Shown here: positions 1-6,202 of the stretch, piece after piece
Layout of the letters: each line of letters opens with the position of its first letter
Numbering within the stretch: position 1 is the stretch's first letter
Source of the DNA: a virus
DNA: 6,202 bases
Virus record (IMG/VR): IMGVR_UViG_3300045988_052777
Location: 1-6,202 of that record
Direction: 5' to 3' (one strand)
Made by a program: the position numbers and the translations under genes
Notes under the pieces: model-generated
The model's input: only the letters and a program-made list of their open reading frames with translations
Told to the model about the DNA's origin: nothing
The model's database searches: none

Positions 1-99
1 GAGATGCCGCCACGGGAGGACTAGCAAGCGGAGTAGGAAGTTTTGTAAATGGACTATTCGGAGGCGGAGGAGGAATAAATTATCACGACCAAAAAAAAC
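1..99. repeat. Terminal redundancy (copy 1), identical to 6104-6202. It is an assembly artefact of a circular genome, giving a unit length of about 6103 nt.
   Basis: By eye, 1-99 (gagatgccgccacgggaggactagcaagcgg...accaaaaaaaac) matches 6104-6202 base for base. Confidence 0.9.
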
Positions 100-1082
100 T
101 AATGGAAAAACAGCACGGGTATGAATTGGAAAACATGGATTATCAAGCGAAGCTTAACGAAGAAATGGCACAGAGGAATCAACAGCGCCAAAACGAATAC
201 TTCGGAATGACAGCAGAATACAATTCAGCGAAAAACCAAAAACAACGCCTGGAAGAAGCAGGATTAAATCCTGCATTAATGTACGGAAGCGCAGGAAGTG
301 GCGGAGCAGGGACAGGAAGCACGGGAGGAGCAAGCGGGAGCGGTGTCGGACTATCGCAAGCACAAGCAGTAGGTATGGGACTTCAATTAAGCCAAATCAA
401 GGCACAAACGAACTTAATGAATGCAGAGAGCGCCAAGGCATATGCAGAAGCGAACAAAATCAAAGGAGTTGATACAGAAGCAGCAAAACAAGGAATCAAA
501 GAGAGCGAAGCGAAAGTTGATGAAATTATCGCAAAAATACCTTCAGAAAAACAACAATATTACGTGGGAAAGGCATATGAAGAATCACTCAAGGCAGCTA
601 AAGAGTTAAGCGAAAGTCTAGCAGCAAAAACAGACCAAGAGAAACTTAACCTCAAAGTACAAGAGCATATATTATTTAAAGAATTCGATAAATTAGTTTC
701 TGAAATTGACGGCGTAAATCTAGACAACGACCAAAAAATAATCATCAAAAATTCATTGCAAAAAAGTATAAATTCTCAAATATACCTAAACACAATGAAA
801 GCAATGGAGGCGGCAGCCAATGCCAAGTTCACAAACGAAAACATGAAAACTATCCAAGGACAGTTAGACCTATGGGCAGCACAAGCGGAAAATTGGAAAG
901 GACAGAGGGAAAACATCCTGAAACAAATCGAAGCACAAATAGAGCAGTGGAACAAGGAAAATAAATTTACAGAGAAAAAATTAAATCTAGAAGAAACAAG
1001 GCTTATAGCAGATATAATCCTAAGAAGTCTAGAAGCTGTGCAAAAAATCGGTCAAATAGTAGGAACAGCAATGATTAAGTAA
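1..1082 (+). CDS. Microviridae minor capsid / DNA pilot protein VP2, 5'-truncated here by linearisation. The true ATG is at 6070 and the CDS wraps the circular junction, about 371 aa in total.
   Basis: The open frame (codons at 3,6,9...) is continuous with the ATG at 6070 across the repeat. The N-terminus is glycine-rich (GGLASGVGSFVNGLFGGGGG, GSAGSGGAGTGSTGGASGSG). A 'QRQNEYFGMTAEYNSAKNQKQRLEEAGLNPALMYG' block matches the conserved VP2 core (...AGLNPALAY...). The C-terminal half is long and K/E/Q/A-rich with coiled-coil character. Stop TAA at 1080-1082. Confidence 0.8.
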   Translation, partial: DAATGGLASGVGSFVNGLFGGGGGINYHDQKKLMEKQHGYELENMDYQAKLNEEMAQRNQQRQNEYFGMTAEYNSAKNQKQRLEEAGLNPALMYGSAGSGGAGTGSTGGASGSGVGLSQAQAVGMGLQLSQIKAQTNLMNAESAKAYAEANKIKGVDTEAAKQGIKESEAKVDEIIAKIPSEKQQYYVGKAYEESLKAAKELSESLAAKTDQEKLNLKVQEHILFKEFDKLVSEIDGVNLDNDQKIIIKNSLQKSINSQIYLNTMKAMEAAANAKFTNENMKTIQGQLDLWAAQAENWKGQRENILKQIEAQIEQWNKENKFTEKKLNLEETRLIADIILRSLEAVQKIGQIVGTAMIK

Positions 1083-1087
1083 TATAT

Positions 1088-2092
1088 ATGTGTTTATATC
1101 CAAAATTAATTCCAAATCCTAAGTACAGGACATCTAAGAAGAGAGGGTACTACAAACCCTCTCCACATGATGCAAGACTGAATTATGTACCAGTAGCATG
1201 CGGGAAGTGCTACGAGTGTAGAAAAAAGAAAGCTAGAGAGTGGAGAATCAGACTAGCCGAAGAAATAAGGCACAACAAGAGTTATTTCGTAACATTAACG
1301 ATTGACGATGAGAATTTAGTAATGTTGAAAAACGAACTAGAAGTAAAATCAGTTAAAGGAAACGAAAACAATATAGCAACACTAGCGCTAAGAAAATTTC
1401 TAGAACGATGCAGAAAAAAAACAGGAAAATCACTAAAACACTGGTGCGTAACCGAGTTAGGAGAAGATAAAGGAAGAATACATTTACACGGGATATTCTT
1501 CGGAAACCAGGCAGCGGAGCTAGTAATTGAAAAGTGGAAATATGGGTATGTATTCATCGGTAATTTTGTAAACGAAAAAACAATTAATTACATCAGTAAA
1601 TACATGCTAAAGGATGACTTAAACAATAGAGAATTTACAGGAAAAGTGTTAACAAGTGCAGGAATGGGGAAACAATACTTTGAACGCGGAGACTGGAAAT
1701 TTAATAGATACAATGGGGAAAACACAAGAGAATATTACGTATTCAAGAACGGTACTAGGGCGATGATGCCAAGGTATTACAAGGACAAGATTTACAGCGA
1801 AGAAGAAAAAGAATTACTTTGGCTACAGAAACTAGATAAAGGCGATACATGGGTGATGGGGGAAAAGTGTAAGATAGATTCAGTGGAGTACAAGAATCTC
1901 CTAAGTTACTACAGAGAACAAGCAAAACAAATACACGGAGATAATATAGCTCTATGGAAGGAAAAACAATATTGGCGAAGACTAGAAAAACAAAGAAGTA
2001 TGTACAGAAAACGAAGGAATATGAATGAATATATCGACAGACAAACAGCAGAGAGAATAAACAACTACGAAATTGGGTGTTGTCCGTTCTGA
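1088..2092 (+). CDS. Microviridae replication initiation protein VP4, a rolling-circle HUH endonuclease homologous to gene A protein.
   Basis: RCR motif 1 YFVTLTIDD (aa 66-74). Motif 2 HLHGIFF (aa 132-138, HUH). Motif 3 YISKYMLKD with two Tyr four residues apart (Y168/Y172, like phiX174 A 'YVAKY'). N-terminal 'CLYPKLIPNPKY' and a Cys cluster ACGKCYEC are typical of gokusho-like VP4. The ATG at 1088 lies 5 nt after the VP2 stop. Confidence 0.9.
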   Translation: MCLYPKLIPNPKYRTSKKRGYYKPSPHDARLNYVPVACGKCYECRKKKAREWRIRLAEEIRHNKSYFVTLTIDDENLVMLKNELEVKSVKGNENNIATLALRKFLERCRKKTGKSLKHWCVTELGEDKGRIHLHGIFFGNQAAELVIEKWKYGYVFIGNFVNEKTINYISKYMLKDDLNNREFTGKVLTSAGMGKQYFERGDWKFNRYNGENTREYYVFKNGTRAMMPRYYKDKIYSEEEKELLWLQKLDKGDTWVMGEKCKIDSVEYKNLLSYYREQAKQIHGDNIALWKEKQYWRRLEKQRSMYRKRRNMNEYIDRQTAERINNYEIGCCPF

Positions 2093-2108
2093 CACACGAA
2101 AGTTCGCC

Positions 2109-2309
2109 ATGCTCGAGATGCTCGCTGTACTCGACAGACATGAAGGTGTTGCTTCGCAGCTCATTACTCTCCTCACTTCGTTCGGCCGTTCCTCGTTCTC
2201 CCAACTCGTCACTCAGGCACGATCGACCCGGTCGAGACGTGTAACAGCATCAGGCTGTTCTTTGTCTCGGCAAAGAACCAAACCGACCCCCTCACTCATT
2301 TTTTATTAG
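2109..2309 (+). CDS. Doubtful small ORF in the GC-rich island. It has an Arg/Ser-rich C-terminus and could be a J/VP8-like DNA-binding peptide. The region may instead be non-coding.
   Basis: Open frame 2073-2309 with in-frame ATGs at 2073 (overlapping the VP4 end) and 2109. The C-terminus reads ARSTRSRRVTASGCSLSRQRTKPT. Composition and codon usage differ sharply from every other gene in the genome. Confidence 0.2.
   Translation: MLEMLAVLDRHEGVASQLITLLTSFGRSSFSQLVTQARSTRSRRVTASGCSLSRQRTKPTPSLIFY
2223..2235. repeat. Perfect palindrome tcgacc-c-ggtcga.
   Basis: Read directly: 6-nt arms that are reverse complements, with a 1-nt centre. It lies inside the GC-rich island. Confidence 0.6.
2257..2278 (+). 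other. Stem-loop with an 8-bp stem (gttctttg / caaagaac) and a 6-nt loop (tctcgg). It may be a terminator or an ssDNA structural element.
   Basis: The arms are exact reverse complements. A T-run (tttttta) follows about 20 nt downstream at about 2299. Confidence 0.5.
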
Positions 2310-2322
2310 CAATGCTGATGGG

Positions 2323-2344
2323 GAAGTGTTAAAGAAGTGTTAAA
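2323..2344. repeat. Exact tandem direct repeat, 2 x 11 bp (gaagtgttaaa gaagtgttaaa), placed just upstream of the promoter candidate.
   Basis: Read directly. GTGTTAAA loosely resembles a XerD-arm half-site (TTATGTTAAAT) or an operator half-site. Confidence 0.6.
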
Positions 2345-2352
2345 GTCAGTCA

Positions 2353-2388
2353 TTTGTTTGGTTGGCTTATATTTTTGTGTTATCTTTG
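2353..2388 (+). promoter_or_regulatory. Bacteroidetes-type sigma-ABfr promoter candidate. It has -33 TTTG (2353-2356 and 2357-2360) and -7 TAtcTTTG (2381-2388) with about 20 nt spacing. It would drive the small-ORF/VP1 operon.
   Basis: Exact match to the TAnnTTTG -7 element, with TTTG correctly spaced upstream. It sits about 50 nt before the first gene of the cluster (ATG 2438). No ATG in the genome has an SD sequence. Confidence 0.45.
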
Positions 2389-2437
2389 TGGTGTGATAAA
2401 GAGATAAACACCATTAACAAACAAAAAACTTACAATT

Positions 2438-2650
2438 ATGGAAAGAGAAATAGAAATAAAAGCTAAAGAAAACGACTCATACAGGCTAATCCTCAAGCTA
2501 GAATTAGACGAAGAGGACGAAGAGTTGTTAAAGAAAAGACTTCACTTACTTGCGTTATGGCCAAAATTAAGCAATGAACAGGGAGAAGTGATTGAAACAC
2601 TGTTCGGATATTATTGGTACAAAAATTGTGAAATCAATATAATTAAATAA
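2438..2650 (+). CDS. Hypothetical small acidic protein (70 aa), first gene of the accessory module.
   Basis: ATG-initiated ORF directly downstream of the promoter candidate. It is very E/D-rich (LELDEEDEELL). The next ORF starts 2 nt after its stop. Confidence 0.5.
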   Translation: MEREIEIKAKENDSYRLILKLELDEEDEELLKKRLHLLALWPKLSNEQGEVIETLFGYYWYKNCEINIIK

Positions 2651-2651
2651 T

Positions 2652-2873
2652 ATGAATAAGATTTACAGCGTATTAAGAATAGATAATTGGGATAAAGCCC
2701 AATCAGTCTACGAAGGAAGAATTAGAGATTGTAAAAAAAGTTTAGAGACAATCGAAAAGGAATATCGACAAAGAGGCTGGAAAACAAAATTATACGATTA
2801 CGCGCTAATCATAAAATCAGCGACATCAAATTACCAACAATACATCTACTTAATTCACGAACCTGAATTTTAA
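2652..2873 (+). CDS. Hypothetical protein (73 aa).
   Basis: ATG 2 nt after the previous stop, with tight coupling. Orientation and spacing are consistent with an operon. Confidence 0.45.
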   Translation: MNKIYSVLRIDNWDKAQSVYEGRIRDCKKSLETIEKEYRQRGWKTKLYDYALIIKSATSNYQQYIYLIHEPEF

Positions 2874-2874
2874 T

Positions 2875-3066
2875 ATGAGAAACAAGACAATAGCGGTGAT
2901 TGCCGACAAAGAGACAGGAGTCGTCAAATCAATAGAAACAGAGGTAATTATCTTACAGAAGGAATTAGAATCCGAAATGAGATGGGAATGCATGGAAGCT
3001 ATTAAGAGGCTTATAAACAAAAAGAAATACAAAATTATTAACATAAATACTTACTTTTATGACTAA
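2875..3066 (+). CDS. Hypothetical protein (63 aa).
   Basis: ATG 2 nt after the previous stop. Its stop overlaps the next start in ATGACTAA. Confidence 0.45.
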   Translation: MRNKTIAVIADKETGVVKSIETEVIILQKELESEMRWECMEAIKRLINKKKYKIININTYFYD

Positions 3067-3253
3067 AGAACAGAAAGAAAAATTAATTACAGCAGTGGTT
3101 ACATTTATTACCACAGTGTTAAGCATCCTGTTTTTACAAGCATGCACAATGAGTATGAGTATTGCGAAAAACAATAACGGTACTTTCGAACAAAGACATG
3201 AAAACAGTACTAACGTGGATAGCACGAAAATTAATAACAATTTTAATAAGTAA
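3059..3253 (+). CDS. Small membrane protein or lipoprotein (64 aa) with an N-terminal signal/TM segment and a lipobox-like LQAC. It is a candidate lysis (amurin-like) or superinfection-exclusion protein.
   Basis: MTKEQKEK (charged n-region), then LITAVVTFITTVLSILFL (18 hydrophobic residues), then QAC-TMSMS, followed by a hydrophilic N/S/T-rich tail. Its start overlaps the upstream stop (ATGACTAA), which suggests translational coupling. Confidence 0.5.
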   Translation: MTKEQKEKLITAVVTFITTVLSILFLQACTMSMSIAKNNNGTFEQRHENSTNVDSTKINNNFNK

Positions 3254-3258
3254 AAATT

Positions 3259-3495
3259 ATGGAAAGAAATGGAATGAACTTATTCAGAGTCGAGAAAACA
3301 AAAGTAAACGAAGAGGAAAGATTCGTAATTGTGTGCGGAAAATATCGCGCATCAAAAGTGGAATTCAAAACAAAAGAAAATGCAGAAGACTACATAGCAA
3401 ACATGATAGATTGGGACATGTTAGTAACCATTGTAGGACAACTAAGCGAACATATCGCAGAAAAAAAAGTAAACGAAATGTTAAATAATAAATAA
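3259..3495 (+). CDS. Hypothetical protein (78 aa), last gene before VP1.
   Basis: ATG 5 nt after the previous stop. It ends 8 nt before the VP1 ATG. Confidence 0.45.
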   Translation: MERNGMNLFRVEKTKVNEEERFVIVCGKYRASKVEFKTKENAEDYIANMIDWDMLVTIVGQLSEHIAEKKVNEMLNNK

Positions 3496-3503
3496 GTAAG
3501 ACT

Positions 3504-5510
3504 ATGGTTAAAAAAACTATTGGAAAAAATACACTTGGCGACAATAATAAGATGAAAGTCGCTATGCGTGACTATGAAAGAAGTACACACAACCTATCAT
3601 ACATTTGGAGAAACACACAAGCACCGGGAACGCTAGTTCCCTGCATGAAAATTCTAGCAACACCGGGAACGACTTACAAGATTAAGGCAAACAGTCACAT
3701 TCTGACACATCCTACAGTCGGGCCTCTATTTGGAAGCTATAAGTTTCAAGTGGATATATTCACAGTACCCATCAGGTTATATAATGCGTTGCTTCATAAC
3801 AACGCACTAAATGTAGGGCTTGACATGGCAAAAGTTAAATTTCCTAAATTCGCAATAACATTAGGGAAAGACAGTTCTAAAACACCGTGGAGCAGCAGCA
3901 GCCTGTTAACTTATCTAGGGTTCCGGAACAAAGGTCGCGAATTATCTGACTCACTCGATTTTACGCATAAATTTAACGCAATTCCTGCAATCGCGTATTA
4001 TGACATCTTCAAAAATTATTACGCAAACAAACAGGAAGAAAAATTCTATACAATTGGAGTAGGAGACGTGACAGAGGTGCAAAATCCAACTACAACCAGC
4101 TCACCAATTAGAGTGATGGCGGAGGCTCTTGTAGGATCGGAACAAAATTGGGAACTAGTAACCAATAGCTTTATGAATCTGTATTATGCAGAAAACAAAA
4201 TTGTACAATATGTAATTGAAATAGCAGATACAGTATTTCCAAGTAACGGAGATATTAATCAATTAATATTAATAGGCGAATACCTATCGGATGCAACGAA
4301 TGTTATAGGCACTTTCGAAATCACAGCAAAACAAATGGCAGGAAATGCAGCGCTTTCCTACAATAATCAAGTATGGAGCATCCCAGTAAACTGGCACGAT
4401 AAACCTGAATACAGAAACATCAGATTAACAGGCGTCAAGACATCAGGTTCGATCAAACTAAATGAATACGAACTCGAACAAATTGATAAAACCAGAGAGG
4501 AAATTCTATCACTAGGAAGTCAAGAAGGTTTAATACAGCACGAAACCGGAAAAGGAAACATAACGCAAAAGTATCTAAAAGACCTAATCAGCTTAGGAAG
4601 AGAATTTTACAGCGCATATCCACAAGTAGGACTAGCGATTAAGACTTACCAGTCCGACATCTTTAACAATTGGATTAATACAGAATGGATTGACGGAGAA
4701 AACGGAATCAACGCAATTACAGCAGTGGACGTATCAGACGGAAAGCTAGAGTTAGATACACTAATCCTAGCAAAAAAAGTATACAATATGCTCAACCGAA
4801 TCGCAATCAGCGGAGGAACATATAATGACTGGATCGAAACAGTCTATACAACTGATTATGTAAGCAGAAGCGAGATACCTGAATACCAAGGAGGTATGTC
4901 AAGCGAGATCCAATTCCAAGAAGTAGTAAGCAACAGCGCAACCGAAAACGAACCTTTAGGAACGTTAGCAGGACGAGGAATTAATACCGGAAAGAAGGGA
5001 GGAGATATTACTGTGAAGGTAAGCGAGCCATGTTATCTAATAGGAATATGCAGTATTACACCAAGAGTCGATTATTCACAAGGAAACGATTTCGACATCA
5101 TGCTAGACAACCTCGACCAGATCCACAAGCCACAGCTTGACCAAATCGGCTTCCAAGATTTACTTACATGGAAAATGGACGCAGAACAAATCGTGTATGC
5201 GAATGGAGTACTCAAGGAGTATAGCGTAGGAAAACAGCCTGCATGGATAGATTATATGACAAACTACAACAAAACATACGGAAACTTCGCCGTAGGAGAA
5301 CCAGAGGCATTCATGGTGTTAAACAGAATTTACAAAACCGAATGGGAGGGAAATACGCCGAAAATAAACAACTCAACATACATTGACCCACAATCATATA
5401 ATTATGTATTCGCAGATACAGACTTACAATCAATGAATTTTTGGGTGCAAATCGGATTTGACATCGAAGCCCGTATTGTGATGAGCGCCAAAGTAATGCC
5501 AACACTTTAA
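3504..5510 (+). CDS. Microviridae major capsid protein VP1 (F-protein family), 668 aa.
   Basis: The N-terminus carries the conserved pattern ...LSYIWRN...PGTLVPC...ATPGTTYKIKANSHILTHPTVGPLFGSYKFQVDIFTVPIRLY, matching the gokusho/alpa VP1 signature LSH...G.L.P...PG.T...P...F.VP.RL. Its size matches Alpavirinae-like VP1, which is longer than classic gokushovirus VP1 at about 550 aa. It is the longest ORF in the genome. Confidence 0.9.
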   Translation: MVKKTIGKNTLGDNNKMKVAMRDYERSTHNLSYIWRNTQAPGTLVPCMKILATPGTTYKIKANSHILTHPTVGPLFGSYKFQVDIFTVPIRLYNALLHNNALNVGLDMAKVKFPKFAITLGKDSSKTPWSSSSLLTYLGFRNKGRELSDSLDFTHKFNAIPAIAYYDIFKNYYANKQEEKFYTIGVGDVTEVQNPTTTSSPIRVMAEALVGSEQNWELVTNSFMNLYYAENKIVQYVIEIADTVFPSNGDINQLILIGEYLSDATNVIGTFEITAKQMAGNAALSYNNQVWSIPVNWHDKPEYRNIRLTGVKTSGSIKLNEYELEQIDKTREEILSLGSQEGLIQHETGKGNITQKYLKDLISLGREFYSAYPQVGLAIKTYQSDIFNNWINTEWIDGENGINAITAVDVSDGKLELDTLILAKKVYNMLNRIAISGGTYNDWIETVYTTDYVSRSEIPEYQGGMSSEIQFQEVVSNSATENEPLGTLAGRGINTGKKGGDITVKVSEPCYLIGICSITPRVDYSQGNDFDIMLDNLDQIHKPQLDQIGFQDLLTWKMDAEQIVYANGVLKEYSVGKQPAWIDYMTNYNKTYGNFAVGEPEAFMVLNRIYKTEWEGNTPKINNSTYIDPQSYNYVFADTDLQSMNFWVQIGFDIEARIVMSAKVMPTL

Positions 5511-5521
5511 TATTTTATAAC

Positions 5522-5860
5522 ATGAAAAAAGTAGGAATTAATTACAGAAGCAAGCTAGGAACAGCTTTAGTAGAAGGTGAAAGACTTGAGTCAAAAATTG
5601 ACAGAATGACTCAAAACAACGAACCTATCGGAGATAGCGCGCCACTAATCTACACACCAAGGAAAGATGGAGTAATAGCAGCGTACGACATTCGTACAGA
5701 TAAGTGGGATATTGCCTTAGATGCGATGGAGAAAGTTAATCGAACAAGAGGTAAGATATCAGAGCTAGGTGGTATGCGCGAAGCTAAGAAGAGTATCGAC
5801 GAAGAAGCGAAAAAAGCCGTAGCCAACGGTGCAATTGAGTCGAAGAACGAACTTAATTAG
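5522..5860 (+). CDS. Hypothetical 112-aa protein between VP1 and VP2. It could be an internal scaffolding (VP3-like) or other structural accessory protein.
   Basis: ATG 11 nt after the VP1 stop, on the same strand. It is charged and helical (K/E/A-rich C-terminus). Assignment rests on position only. I do not recognise a VP3 signature. Confidence 0.5.
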   Translation: MKKVGINYRSKLGTALVEGERLESKIDRMTQNNEPIGDSAPLIYTPRKDGVIAAYDIRTDKWDIALDAMEKVNRTRGKISELGGMREAKKSIDEEAKKAVANGAIESKNELN

Positions 5861-5876
5861 CATGTTACCACTTTAG

Positions 5877-5889
5877 TGAACGAAGTTCA
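5877..5889 (+). other. Small hairpin (tgaac-gaa-gttca) immediately after the 5522-5860 stop.
   Basis: Read directly: 5-bp stem with a 3-nt loop. Confidence 0.3.
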
Positions 5890-5972
5890 TACGTGTGAAG
5901 TGCACGACCATTAAAACCGAAGATTTCGCGGGGACGCACGGCATAGATTGTCCAATAAGTTTACCGCGGAAT

Positions 5973-5986
5973 CCTCTTTAAAGAGG
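5973..5986. repeat. Perfect 14-bp palindrome cctcttt|aaagagg in the VP3-like/VP2 intergenic region.
   Basis: Read directly: exact reverse-complement symmetry. It is flanked by GC-rich sequence (ccgcgg ... gtggtacgcacg). Confidence 0.6.
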
Positions 5987-6028
5987 GTGGTACGCACGTA
6001 GCATATATTATCTAGTTATAATGTAAAA

Positions 6029-6043
6029 CTCTTTAGAAAAGAG
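6029..6043 (+). other. Hairpin ctcttt-aga-aaagag, 27 nt upstream of the VP2 ATG.
   Basis: 6-bp exact stem with a 3-nt loop. It shares the CTCTTT/AAAGAG arm sequence with the 14-bp palindrome at 5973-5986. Confidence 0.45.
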
Positions 6044-6069
6044 CGAAACCAATGTAAAAAATTATTATT

Positions 6070-6202
6070 ATGGGATTTATTAAGAATGCATTAGGAATGA
6101 TTGGAGATGCCGCCACGGGAGGACTAGCAAGCGGAGTAGGAAGTTTTGTAAATGGACTATTCGGAGGCGGAGGAGGAATAAATTATCACGACCAAAAAAA
6201 AC
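6070..6202 (+). CDS. VP2 pilot protein N-terminal portion (MGFIKNALGMIGDAATGGLASGVGSFVNGLFGGGGGINYHDQKK...). It continues into 1-1082 through the circular junction.
   Basis: ATG at 6070. Its frame runs into the terminal repeat and is continuous with the ORF ending at 1082. Confidence 0.75.
   Translation, partial: MGFIKNALGMIGDAATGGLASGVGSFVNGLFGGGGGINYHDQKK
6104..6202. repeat. Terminal redundancy (copy 2), identical to 1-99.
   Basis: Base-for-base identity with the window start. Confidence 0.9.

Follow-up and report, generated by a model that had tools for sequence, protein, structure and literature searches.

A C-rich island behind the rep gene of a microvirus is lost repeatedly among relatives yet conserved where present

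Results

A C-rich island lies between rep and a promoter-like site

We analysed a stretch of viral DNA of 6,202 nucleotides (nt) (IMG/VR record IMGVR_UViG_3300045988_052777, positions 1 to 6,202; hereafter the window), focusing on an island at positions 2093-2300 that directly follows rep, the gene for the rolling-circle replication initiator. The window comprises a complete microvirus genome, circular and 6103 nt long, as a circularly permuted contig with an exact 99-nt terminal overlap (6104-6202 equals 1-99). Every recognisable gene is on the + strand. Two regions, 2093-2437 and 5861-6069, are non-coding, and the island takes up the first 208 nt of 2093-2437 (Table 1). Its 5' edge is the rep stop codon, which is TGA, TAA or TAG depending on the relative. 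An initial annotation, made from the letters of the window, had described the island as a GC-rich, pyrimidine-rich and hairpin-dense segment and proposed it as a site of complementary-strand priming, with a recently acquired fragment or a small arginine-rich open reading frame (ORF) as alternatives.

The island is the strongest compositional outlier of the genome. Its GC content is 0.543, compared with 0.374 ± 0.047 in all other 208-nt segments (z = 3.6), its purine content is 0.418 compared with 0.624 (z = -4.7), and its C content is 0.337 compared with 0.163 (z = 5.4; maximum in any other 208-nt segment 0.245). As G (0.207) and T (0.245) stay at the genome level, the enrichment in C comes at the expense of A. 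The motif CTCG is found six times where 0.31 copies are expected from its genome frequency, and the copies are part of a tandem array of three degenerate 9-nt units at 2109-2135 (ATGCTCGAG/ATGCTCGCT/GTACTCGAC). The island contains three perfect inverted repeats with stems of at least 6 bp, compared with 0.47 in dinucleotide shuffles (P = 0.012), and the longest perfect stem measures 8 bp (P = 0.022). The composition, the repeated CTCG units and all three inverted repeats listed in the initial annotation were recovered in this analysis.

The description of the island as hairpin-dense applies to its 3' part only. Taken as a whole, the island folds like its shuffles, with minimum free energy z-scores on the + strand of -0.18 as DNA (-0.30 in a repeat estimate) and -0.10 as RNA, and of +1.55 on the - strand. 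Folding prediction for single-stranded DNA (ssDNA) found stable structure in 2215-2320 (z = -2.93), with two hairpins at 2217-2242 (hairpin P) and 2257-2278 (hairpin H), whereas 2093-2215 (C 0.34, G 0.195) showed no folding in excess of shuffles. The island is therefore made up of an unstructured C-rich tract and, 3' of it, two real hairpins. A specific long-range interaction between the pyrimidine tract and purine-rich sequences of the genome was also considered and rejected; the best pairing had -62.5 kcal/mol, compared with -56.2 ± 4.4 kcal/mol in shuffles, and three of 40 shuffles were equally good.

We divided the island and its 3' margin into three modules, a short leader with the tandem array (a), the remainder of the unstructured tract, which continues into hairpin P (b), and a block with a small hairpin, hairpin H and a tail (c). 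The small hairpin and part of hairpin H are mutually exclusive, and 20 nt separate hairpin H from the T-run at 2299-2304.

Table 1. Positions of the island modules and of the other features of the window, with nucleotide diversity (π) and segregating sites in nine aligned genomes with the full island
Feature	Position (nt)	Strand	π	Segregating sites	Remarks
Pilot-like protein	102-1082	+
rep, rolling-circle replication initiator, 334 amino acids	1088-2092	+	0.257 (third codon positions)	203/334	PF23343, E = 9e-14; phrog_942, E = 9e-36
Module a: short leader and degenerate 9-nt tandem array (2109-2135)	2093-2140	+	0.177 (alignment uncertain)	19/48	Copy number varies in relatives
Module b: C-rich, A-poor, unstructured tract, continuing into hairpin P	2141-2215	+	0.064	11/75	Candidate rut-like Rho-loading tract
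Hairpin P: palindrome (C/A)TCGACCCGGTCGAG with outer CACG/CGTG stem	2217-2242	+	0.037 (2216-2242)	3/27	DNA fold z = -2.93 (2215-2320)
Module c: small hairpin, hairpin H and tail with T-run	2243-2316	+
Small hairpin AACAGC-ATCAG-GCTGTT, followed by CTTTGTCT	2243-2259	+			Weak intrinsic-terminator-like match
Hairpin H: GTTCTTTG-TCTCGG-CAAAGAAC, 8-bp perfect stem	2257-2278	+	0.000	0/22	Alignment of carriers includes L017 at 74% genome identity
Conserved tail with T-run (2299-2304)	2279-2316	+	0.012	2/38	In all close relatives but L005
Two perfect 11-nt direct repeats, GAAGTGTTAAA x2	2323-2344	+			3' flank of the island, outside it; in all close relatives
Bacteroidetes-type promoter-like site, TTTG-N20-TATCTTTG	2357-2388	+	0.05
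Five small ORFs	2438-3495	+	0.24 (third codon positions of the ORF at 2438)	36/70
Major capsid protein	3504-5510	+
Further ORF	5522-5860	+
Second non-coding region	5861-6069				ssDNA fold z = -1.83

The island is ancestral to its clade and has been lost repeatedly

Scans based on Rep and on the island yielded 16 close relatives (designated by L numbers below), with 80-98% Rep identity and 74-88% genome identity, from one IMG sample and several independent ENA assemblies. Together with the window they form a set of 17 genomes. The full island (modules a, b and c, with three to about five copies of the 9-nt unit) is present in 10 of these 17 genomes. The array has three degenerate units in the window and three units in L003 and L008, 4.6 perfect copies of TCTCGAGGT in L004 and likewise 4.6 perfect copies in L020, and a decayed, AT-shifted version in L022. 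YC (pyrimidine-C) dinucleotides recur in the tract with a 9-nt period.

In the other seven genomes, positions 2093-2235 are missing or truncated, with four different deletion junctions. Four of them (L002, L006, L021 and L023) lack modules a and b and hairpin P and have the junction TCT(G/A)AC|(G/A)TGTAATAG. L009 lacks module a and most of b and keeps hairpin P, while L022 keeps its AT-shifted module a and has lost b and hairpin P. Almost the whole island is gone in L005 (junction CCATACT|GATGG, between CATGCT and AATGCT), and the genes of this genome are otherwise intact despite the loss of the hairpins and the tail. Each junction lies at a short microhomology (GAC/GAC, CATGCT/AATGCT). Hairpin P is absent from six genomes (L002, L006, L021, L023, L022 and L005) and hairpin H from L005 only, and a core of hairpin and T-run is kept in 16 of the 17 genomes.

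In a phylogeny of the 3' portion of rep, the genomes with deletions are nested among those with the full island, and the basal L017, which lies on the same contig as L009, retains module b in part, together with hairpins P and H and the tail. Both points place the island in the ancestor of the clade, with repeated losses since then. The island was therefore not acquired recently, and members of the clade can do without 2093-2235.

L009 also carries an extra purine-rich insert of about 70-110 nt directly 3' of the T-run (5080-5190 of the contig shared with L017). The insert is absent in all other relatives, removes the stop codon of the ORF that spans the island and extends its frame. It shows that the same intergenic spot can also gain DNA.

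The island is strongly constrained where it is present

Sequence diversity was compared among nine aligned genomes with the full island (36 pairs; Table 1). Module a, with its high diversity and variable copy number, differs from the rest and is the least constrained part. In the central tract, the proportion of segregating sites is far below that at the third codon positions of rep (Fisher p = 1.8e-13). The mean pairwise distance over 2141-2316 is 0.045, compared with 0.234 at flanking synonymous sites, and none of the 36 pairs has a value above 0.08. This distance is uncorrelated with that of the flanks and stays at or below 0.08 even where both flanks differ at about 0.33 of synonymous sites. 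The block of low diversity stops at the gene boundaries on both sides, and 2216-2346 is the least diverse DNA of the genome (π 0-0.05).

The two polymorphic sites of hairpin P (2217-2242) lie in the loop (2230) or at one edge of the stem (2222). Hairpin H is invariant in the aligned carriers and has one mismatch in L021. For the small hairpin at 2243-2259, three transitions in relatives are wobble-compatible in RNA, and one transversion in L004 breaks a pair. Hairpins P and H have too few substitutions to judge covariation, and one possible compensatory pair (2196/2204) was noted in a 3-bp stem.

Where present, the island is thus about five times less diverse than flanking synonymous sites. 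This pattern is expected either from purifying selection on nearly every nucleotide or from a single island haplotype that swept the clade by recombination, and in either case a function would be implied. Absence in relatives and lack of constraint are therefore different things; the same DNA is dispensable and yet evolves about five times more slowly than synonymous sites. To judge from these alignments, the island has the profile of an accessory cis-acting module.

No donor of the island was found in the collections searched

The suggestion that the island is a recently acquired fragment was not borne out, as the island is ancestral to the clade and no donor emerged from the searches described here. 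An exact 24-mer of the island had no match in 185,579 species-representative genomes, and searches of phage and plasmid collections gave no match to the island. No internal or inverted duplication of phage sequence that could have been its source was detected. Searches of metagenome contigs with peptide patterns returned only microvirus-size contigs among the matches listed, and searches of the 185,579 reference genomes with Rep patterns returned no integrated phage copies.

A related possibility is that the island is functionless foreign DNA that entered by illegitimate recombination and is now decaying by slippage and by deletions at microhomologies. Its foreign composition, its variable tandem repeats, the four deletion junctions at short microhomologies, the decayed AT-shifted repeats of L022 and the lineage-specific inserts at the same site in L009 and in the more distant L049 are all compatible with such a history. 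However, diversity is five times below that of flanking synonymous sites in every pair, which largely refutes neutrality for 2141-2316, and the island was already present in the ancestor of a clade whose genomes are now 74-88% identical. Together with the failure to find a donor in the 185,579 genomes, in plasmids, in phages, in any protein frame or in the metagenome matches listed, this makes neutral capture very unlikely.

The island does not appear to encode a protein

The small arginine-rich ORF noted in the initial annotation (2109-2309) does exist on the + strand and, starting at 2073 or 2109, would encode 66-78 amino acids. It is open in most genomes with the full island, although this openness carries little weight because pyrimidine-rich sequence is by default open in all + frames. 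The ORF has an in-frame TAG in L010, L016 and L019 and lacks an ATG in L003, L008 and L004. Its frame relative to rep differs among variants; there are three frame relations, two of which are used by genomes with the full island. Programmed readthrough or frameshifting from rep into the ORF was rejected on the basis of these three relations.

Segregating sites in the island ORF show no codon periodicity (8/11/15 by phase; 3/4/4 in the central part), compared with 42/27/203 in rep. Leucine, arginine and serine make up 42% of the predicted residues compared with 16-24% in real genes, and arginine codon usage is atypical. The content of these three amino acids has been used as a flag for non-coding ORFs (PMC9865509). 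Searches of the island ORF against Pfam and PHROGs gave no match, and the five open frames, joined into one query, had no homologue among 5.8 billion protein clusters.

A small basic protein, for example a DNA-binding protein like J or VP8 or an accessory protein, could still be read into the openness of the frame in most full-island genomes, into several indels near multiples of three and into the L009 insert, which lengthens the frame. Given the stop codons, the missing start codons, the variable frame relative to rep, the absence of codon periodicity, the unusual residue and codon content and the lack of a homologue in any frame, we regard such a protein as extremely improbable. The ORF is not conserved and has no excess of third-position variation, and the island is best described as non-coding DNA and not a gene. 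As a separate observation, the deletions of the L002/L006 type and of L009 leave a 3' piece of the ORF in frame with rep, directly after the stop codon, which is TAA, TGA and TAG, respectively. Two independent events would produce such an in-frame placement with a chance of about 0.11.

Direct repeats and a promoter-like box follow the island

The 11-nt direct repeats at 2323-2344 have counterparts in distant relatives, ATGTTAAAG x2 in L036, L046 and L049 (about 45% Rep identity) and ATGTGGATAAG x2 in L045 and L047, and are always located just upstream of a promoter-like box. They are a candidate binding site for Rep or a regulator. The consensus of Bacteroides promoters is TTTG-N17-23-TAnnTTTG. 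It has a single match in the window, at 2357-2388, which is not significant by count (0.62 matches expected by chance), and TAnnTTTG boxes are found at the equivalent position in distant relatives. The match and the equivalent boxes point to a host in the Bacteroidota and to a single main promoter. Terminator-like sites, consisting of a hairpin and a T-run, occur only twice on the + strand of the genome, at 2243-2259 and 2343-2368.

The palindromes CTCGACCCGGTCGAG and GTTCTTTG-N6-CAAAGAAC lie 45-65 nt upstream of the direct repeats, and the two could together form a platform on double-stranded DNA, either as the region recognised or nicked by Rep or as operators of the promoter. The arrangement is similar to the origins of rolling-circle plasmids and CRESS-DNA viruses, which consist of a hairpin and iterons; it adjoins rep, it coincides with the least diverse DNA of the genome (2216-2346), and the repeats are kept as TGTTAAAG x2 at 45% Rep identity. 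The double-strand origin of pMV158-type plasmids consists of a nick hairpin and three 11-bp direct repeats. The window is similar in having a GC-rich hairpin and 11-nt direct repeats within about 50-80 nt of each other beside rep, and differs in having two repeats, in the lack of an identified nick motif and in the existence of L005, which has no hairpins. In L005 the tail is missing as well and the genes are otherwise intact. Moreover, the end points of the deletions do not cluster at one site, unlike those expected from Rep-mediated mis-termination, and the C-rich tract is left unexplained. We therefore consider this role of the palindromes unlikely.

Two more specific candidates were rejected. 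The motif CCCAACTCG, which is similar to the phiX174 origin, has G in place of its A in most relatives (CCCAGCTCG). The TGTTAAAG repeats resemble the XerD arm of a dif site when compared by eye with its consensus; they are direct repeats and lack a XerC arm. No 28-bp dif-like site (inverted 11-bp arms with a 6-bp spacer) was found in the island. Such XerCD attachment sites are known from microvirus proviruses of Bacteroidetes (PMC3091885).

GC-rich segments after rep recur in distant relatives

We also compared about 22 distant relatives with 38-56% Rep identity. The GC-richest 150-nt segment of the locus lies at or just past the rep stop codon in nine of 19 of them. By nhmmer and blastn, these GC-rich segments are unrelated in sequence to the island of the window. 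Seven of 14 post-rep segments tested fold at z-scores of -1.9 to -4.0. Of the 7-mers shared by post-rep regions across 18 lineages, TGTTAAAG and the promoter box are the only conspicuous ones, and no GC-rich core was found.

Two distant genomes, L036 (2144-2260) and L049 (3990-4090), have a common GC-rich cassette of two hairpins after rep. Compensatory changes between them maintain both stems (GTCGG/CCGAC to GCCGG/CCGGC and GAGCTA/TAGCTC to GAGCTG/CAGCTC). In L036 the cassette is downstream of a canonical hairpin and T-run terminator that directly follows the rep stop codon, and in L049 a pyrimidine-rich expansion specific to that lineage lies upstream of it and recalls the island of the window. 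No further copies of the cassette were found in IMG/VR. Given these segments and the cassette, a GC-rich element between rep and the promoter is a recurrent feature of the group that differs between lineages. The rep gene of L049 is split into two overlapping ORFs (2818-3339 and 3231-3914, within 2818-3914), pointing to a frameshift, an error in the sequence or a defective genome.

These hairpins bear on the proposal of complementary-strand priming. Because 2093-2235 is lost or truncated in seven of the 17 close genomes and folds like shuffled sequence up to 2215, this part cannot be an essential structured priming origin; by the standard that the initial annotation itself had set (absence or lack of structure in close relatives), the proposal fails for most of the island. 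The 3' hairpins, of which hairpin H is invariant in the aligned carriers, stay candidates for such a role. Hairpins P and H on the packaged + strand, perhaps with the flanking tract, might recruit host RNA polymerase, primase or PriA and prime the conversion to double-stranded DNA, as a swappable cassette that raises efficiency and is not strictly required. The single-strand origins (sso) of plasmids are elements of this kind, beneficial but dispensable, conserved within a cassette type and made up of 150-200 nt of extensive secondary structure. Like ssoA, ssoT, ssoU and ssoW and the minus-strand origin of Ff phages, the island is non-coding, strand-specific, cassette-like, dispensable and located beside rep; unlike them it is structured over only about 60 nt (the two hairpins), the remainder being single-stranded and pyrimidine-rich.

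An sso-like role would fit the stability of the two hairpins (z = -2.93), the enrichment in inverted repeats (P = 0.012), the near-invariance of hairpin H and the tail, and a constraint at the nucleotide level that has no coding signal. It would also fit the distant relatives, nine of 19 of which have their GC-richest segment after rep, with unrelated sequences and seven folding at z = -1.9 to -4.0, and the L036/L049 hairpins, which differ by compensatory changes and lie downstream of an apparent terminator. Conserved intergenic hairpins of other microviruses have been put forward as candidate sites of negative-strand initiation (PMC9865509). Several points do not fit. Most of the island (2093-2215) lacks structure and is rich in pyrimidines, in contrast to the known sso, ssi and oric elements. 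Hairpin P has been lost from six genomes and the whole block from L005, with a compensating insert in L009 only, and no compensatory covariation was seen within the close clade. In addition, the second non-coding region at 5861-6069 is 88-96% identical in close relatives, and 5976-6077 is 75% identical in L011 (50% Rep identity); with its ssDNA fold (Table 1), this region qualifies at least as well as a candidate for origin functions. On balance, priming by the hairpins of the island is the leading alternative to the transcript end favoured below, but doubtful.

Other features of the genome

A scan of the window for transfer RNA and transfer-messenger RNA genes found none, and Rfam gave no match inside the island at E-values up to 10. 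One Rfam match, to CRISPR-DR32, lies at 235-270 inside the pilot-protein gene (26.6 bits, E = 0.18, gathering score 48) and is most likely due to chance. Within the major capsid gene, 4088-4487 is hypervariable among close relatives (π 0.37-0.44, compared with about 0.15 elsewhere), and this segment probably encodes a surface loop under diversifying selection or recombination.

Discussion

We tentatively favour the interpretation, to which we assign a probability of about 40%, that the island is a transcript-end and insulator zone in which a C-rich unstructured Rho-loading tract is followed by hairpins and a T-run. It would account for most of seven features, namely the C-rich unstructured composition, the base-level constraint, the repeated loss, the location between the last stop codon and the promoter, the 9-nt array, the recurrence in the family and the two hairpins. 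We infer single-promoter transcription, Rho loading and termination at the island from the layout of the genome. The promoter at 2357-2388 would drive a genome-length transcript through the small ORFs and the capsid, scaffold, pilot and rep genes and then into the island. Exit of ribosomes at the rep stop codon would expose about 120 nt of C-rich, A-poor, unstructured RNA (2093-2215) that contains YC dinucleotides 9 nt apart and on which host Rho factor would load. Hairpin P, the small hairpin at 2243-2259, hairpin H and the T-run at 2299-2304 would then make RNA polymerase pause or stop and would cap the 3' end, so that read-through over the promoter of the circular genome would be prevented. 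The hairpin and T-run would be the core of this device and the C-rich tract an accessory booster, dispensable because natural deletion variants keep the core alone.

Sites of Rho utilisation (rut) are C>G-biased, weakly structured and 60-90 nt long; a Rho subunit binds about 5 nt, and linkers of 4-5 nt separate one subunit from the next (PMC12360218). A rut-type rule of six C residues 11-13 nt apart and a C/G ratio above 1.3 in 78 nt matches at starts 2155-2187, and its remaining matches lie only inside the translated capsid gene. The C/G ratio over 78 nt reaches 2.68. As in Rho-dependent terminators, the tract is biased towards C over G (0.34 and 0.195) with a fold z-score of about 0, and it directly follows the rep stop at 2092, with the hairpins at 2217-2278 downstream, the RNA itself being deduced from gene orientation. 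Transcript termination is further supported by the 9-nt period of the YC dinucleotides, by the location of the only terminator-like sites and the only promoter match in one intergenic region, by the retention of the hairpin and T-run core in all but one of the close genomes while modules a and b are dispensable, and by the GC-rich hairpin segments between rep and the TAnnTTTG box in distant relatives, together with the canonical terminator behind rep in L036. Bacteroides thetaiotaomicron, which belongs to the inferred host group, is reported to possess an active Rho termination factor.

Several observations weigh against a Rho-based transcript end. Foremost among them, sites of the rut type are usually defined by composition, whereas the island is constrained base by base (π 0.045 compared with 0.234), which suggests a more sequence-specific partner than Rho alone. 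At 20%, G is not depleted in absolute terms, and higher C/G ratios exist elsewhere in the genome. The 9-nt period of YC dinucleotides stems mainly from the tandem array, which is in the least conserved module. The distance of 20 nt between hairpin H and the T-run means that they do not form a canonical intrinsic terminator, the single-promoter model hangs on one consensus match with 0.62 expected by chance, and the GC-rich segments of distant relatives are not C-rich.

The constraint could instead reflect a new kind of accessory cis-element, in which a C-rich single-stranded platform and two hairpins would be bound sequence-specifically by a host or phage factor. We think this rather unlikely, and the same holds for the forms that it might take, such as a host-specific, sso-like priming cassette or an RNA derived from the 3' untranslated region that counters a host function. 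A conditional fitness benefit of such an element would explain why the island is either kept nearly unchanged or lost outright. Termination, priming and protein binding are not mutually exclusive roles; the intergenic hairpins of phiX174 serve both as transcript ends and in primosome assembly.

Among known systems, the intergenic regions of phiX174-type microviruses contain terminator hairpins, a promoter and the PriA n' assembly site. The island resembles these regions (H-A, J-F and F-G) in being a short stretch at a gene end on the + strand with GC-rich hairpins beside a promoter (PMC9865509). It differs from them in having no sequence similarity, in the 120-nt C-rich tract and variable 9-nt array that precede the hairpins, in a Bacteroidetes-like host group (judged by promoter type) and in the deletion of most of the element in relatives. 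In Rho-dependent terminators such as lambda tR1, a rut tract is followed by pause sites. The island is comparable in that a stop codon is directly followed by more than 60 nt of C>G-biased, weakly structured sequence and then by hairpins; it is conserved far more than is expected of rut sites and its G is not depleted, and Rho dependence is in this case a prediction. The island belongs to a known kind of element, the multifunctional intergenic control regions of microviruses.

To our knowledge, almost nothing is known about the cis-acting signals (origins, terminators and promoters) of the abundant microviruses that infect gut Bacteroidetes. The island is worth following for its combination of dispensability and strong constraint and for the natural deletion series that accompanies it. 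Genomes with the full island, with the hairpins only, with the central part missing and with nothing left are otherwise near-isogenic, and they provide a direct test system for its function.

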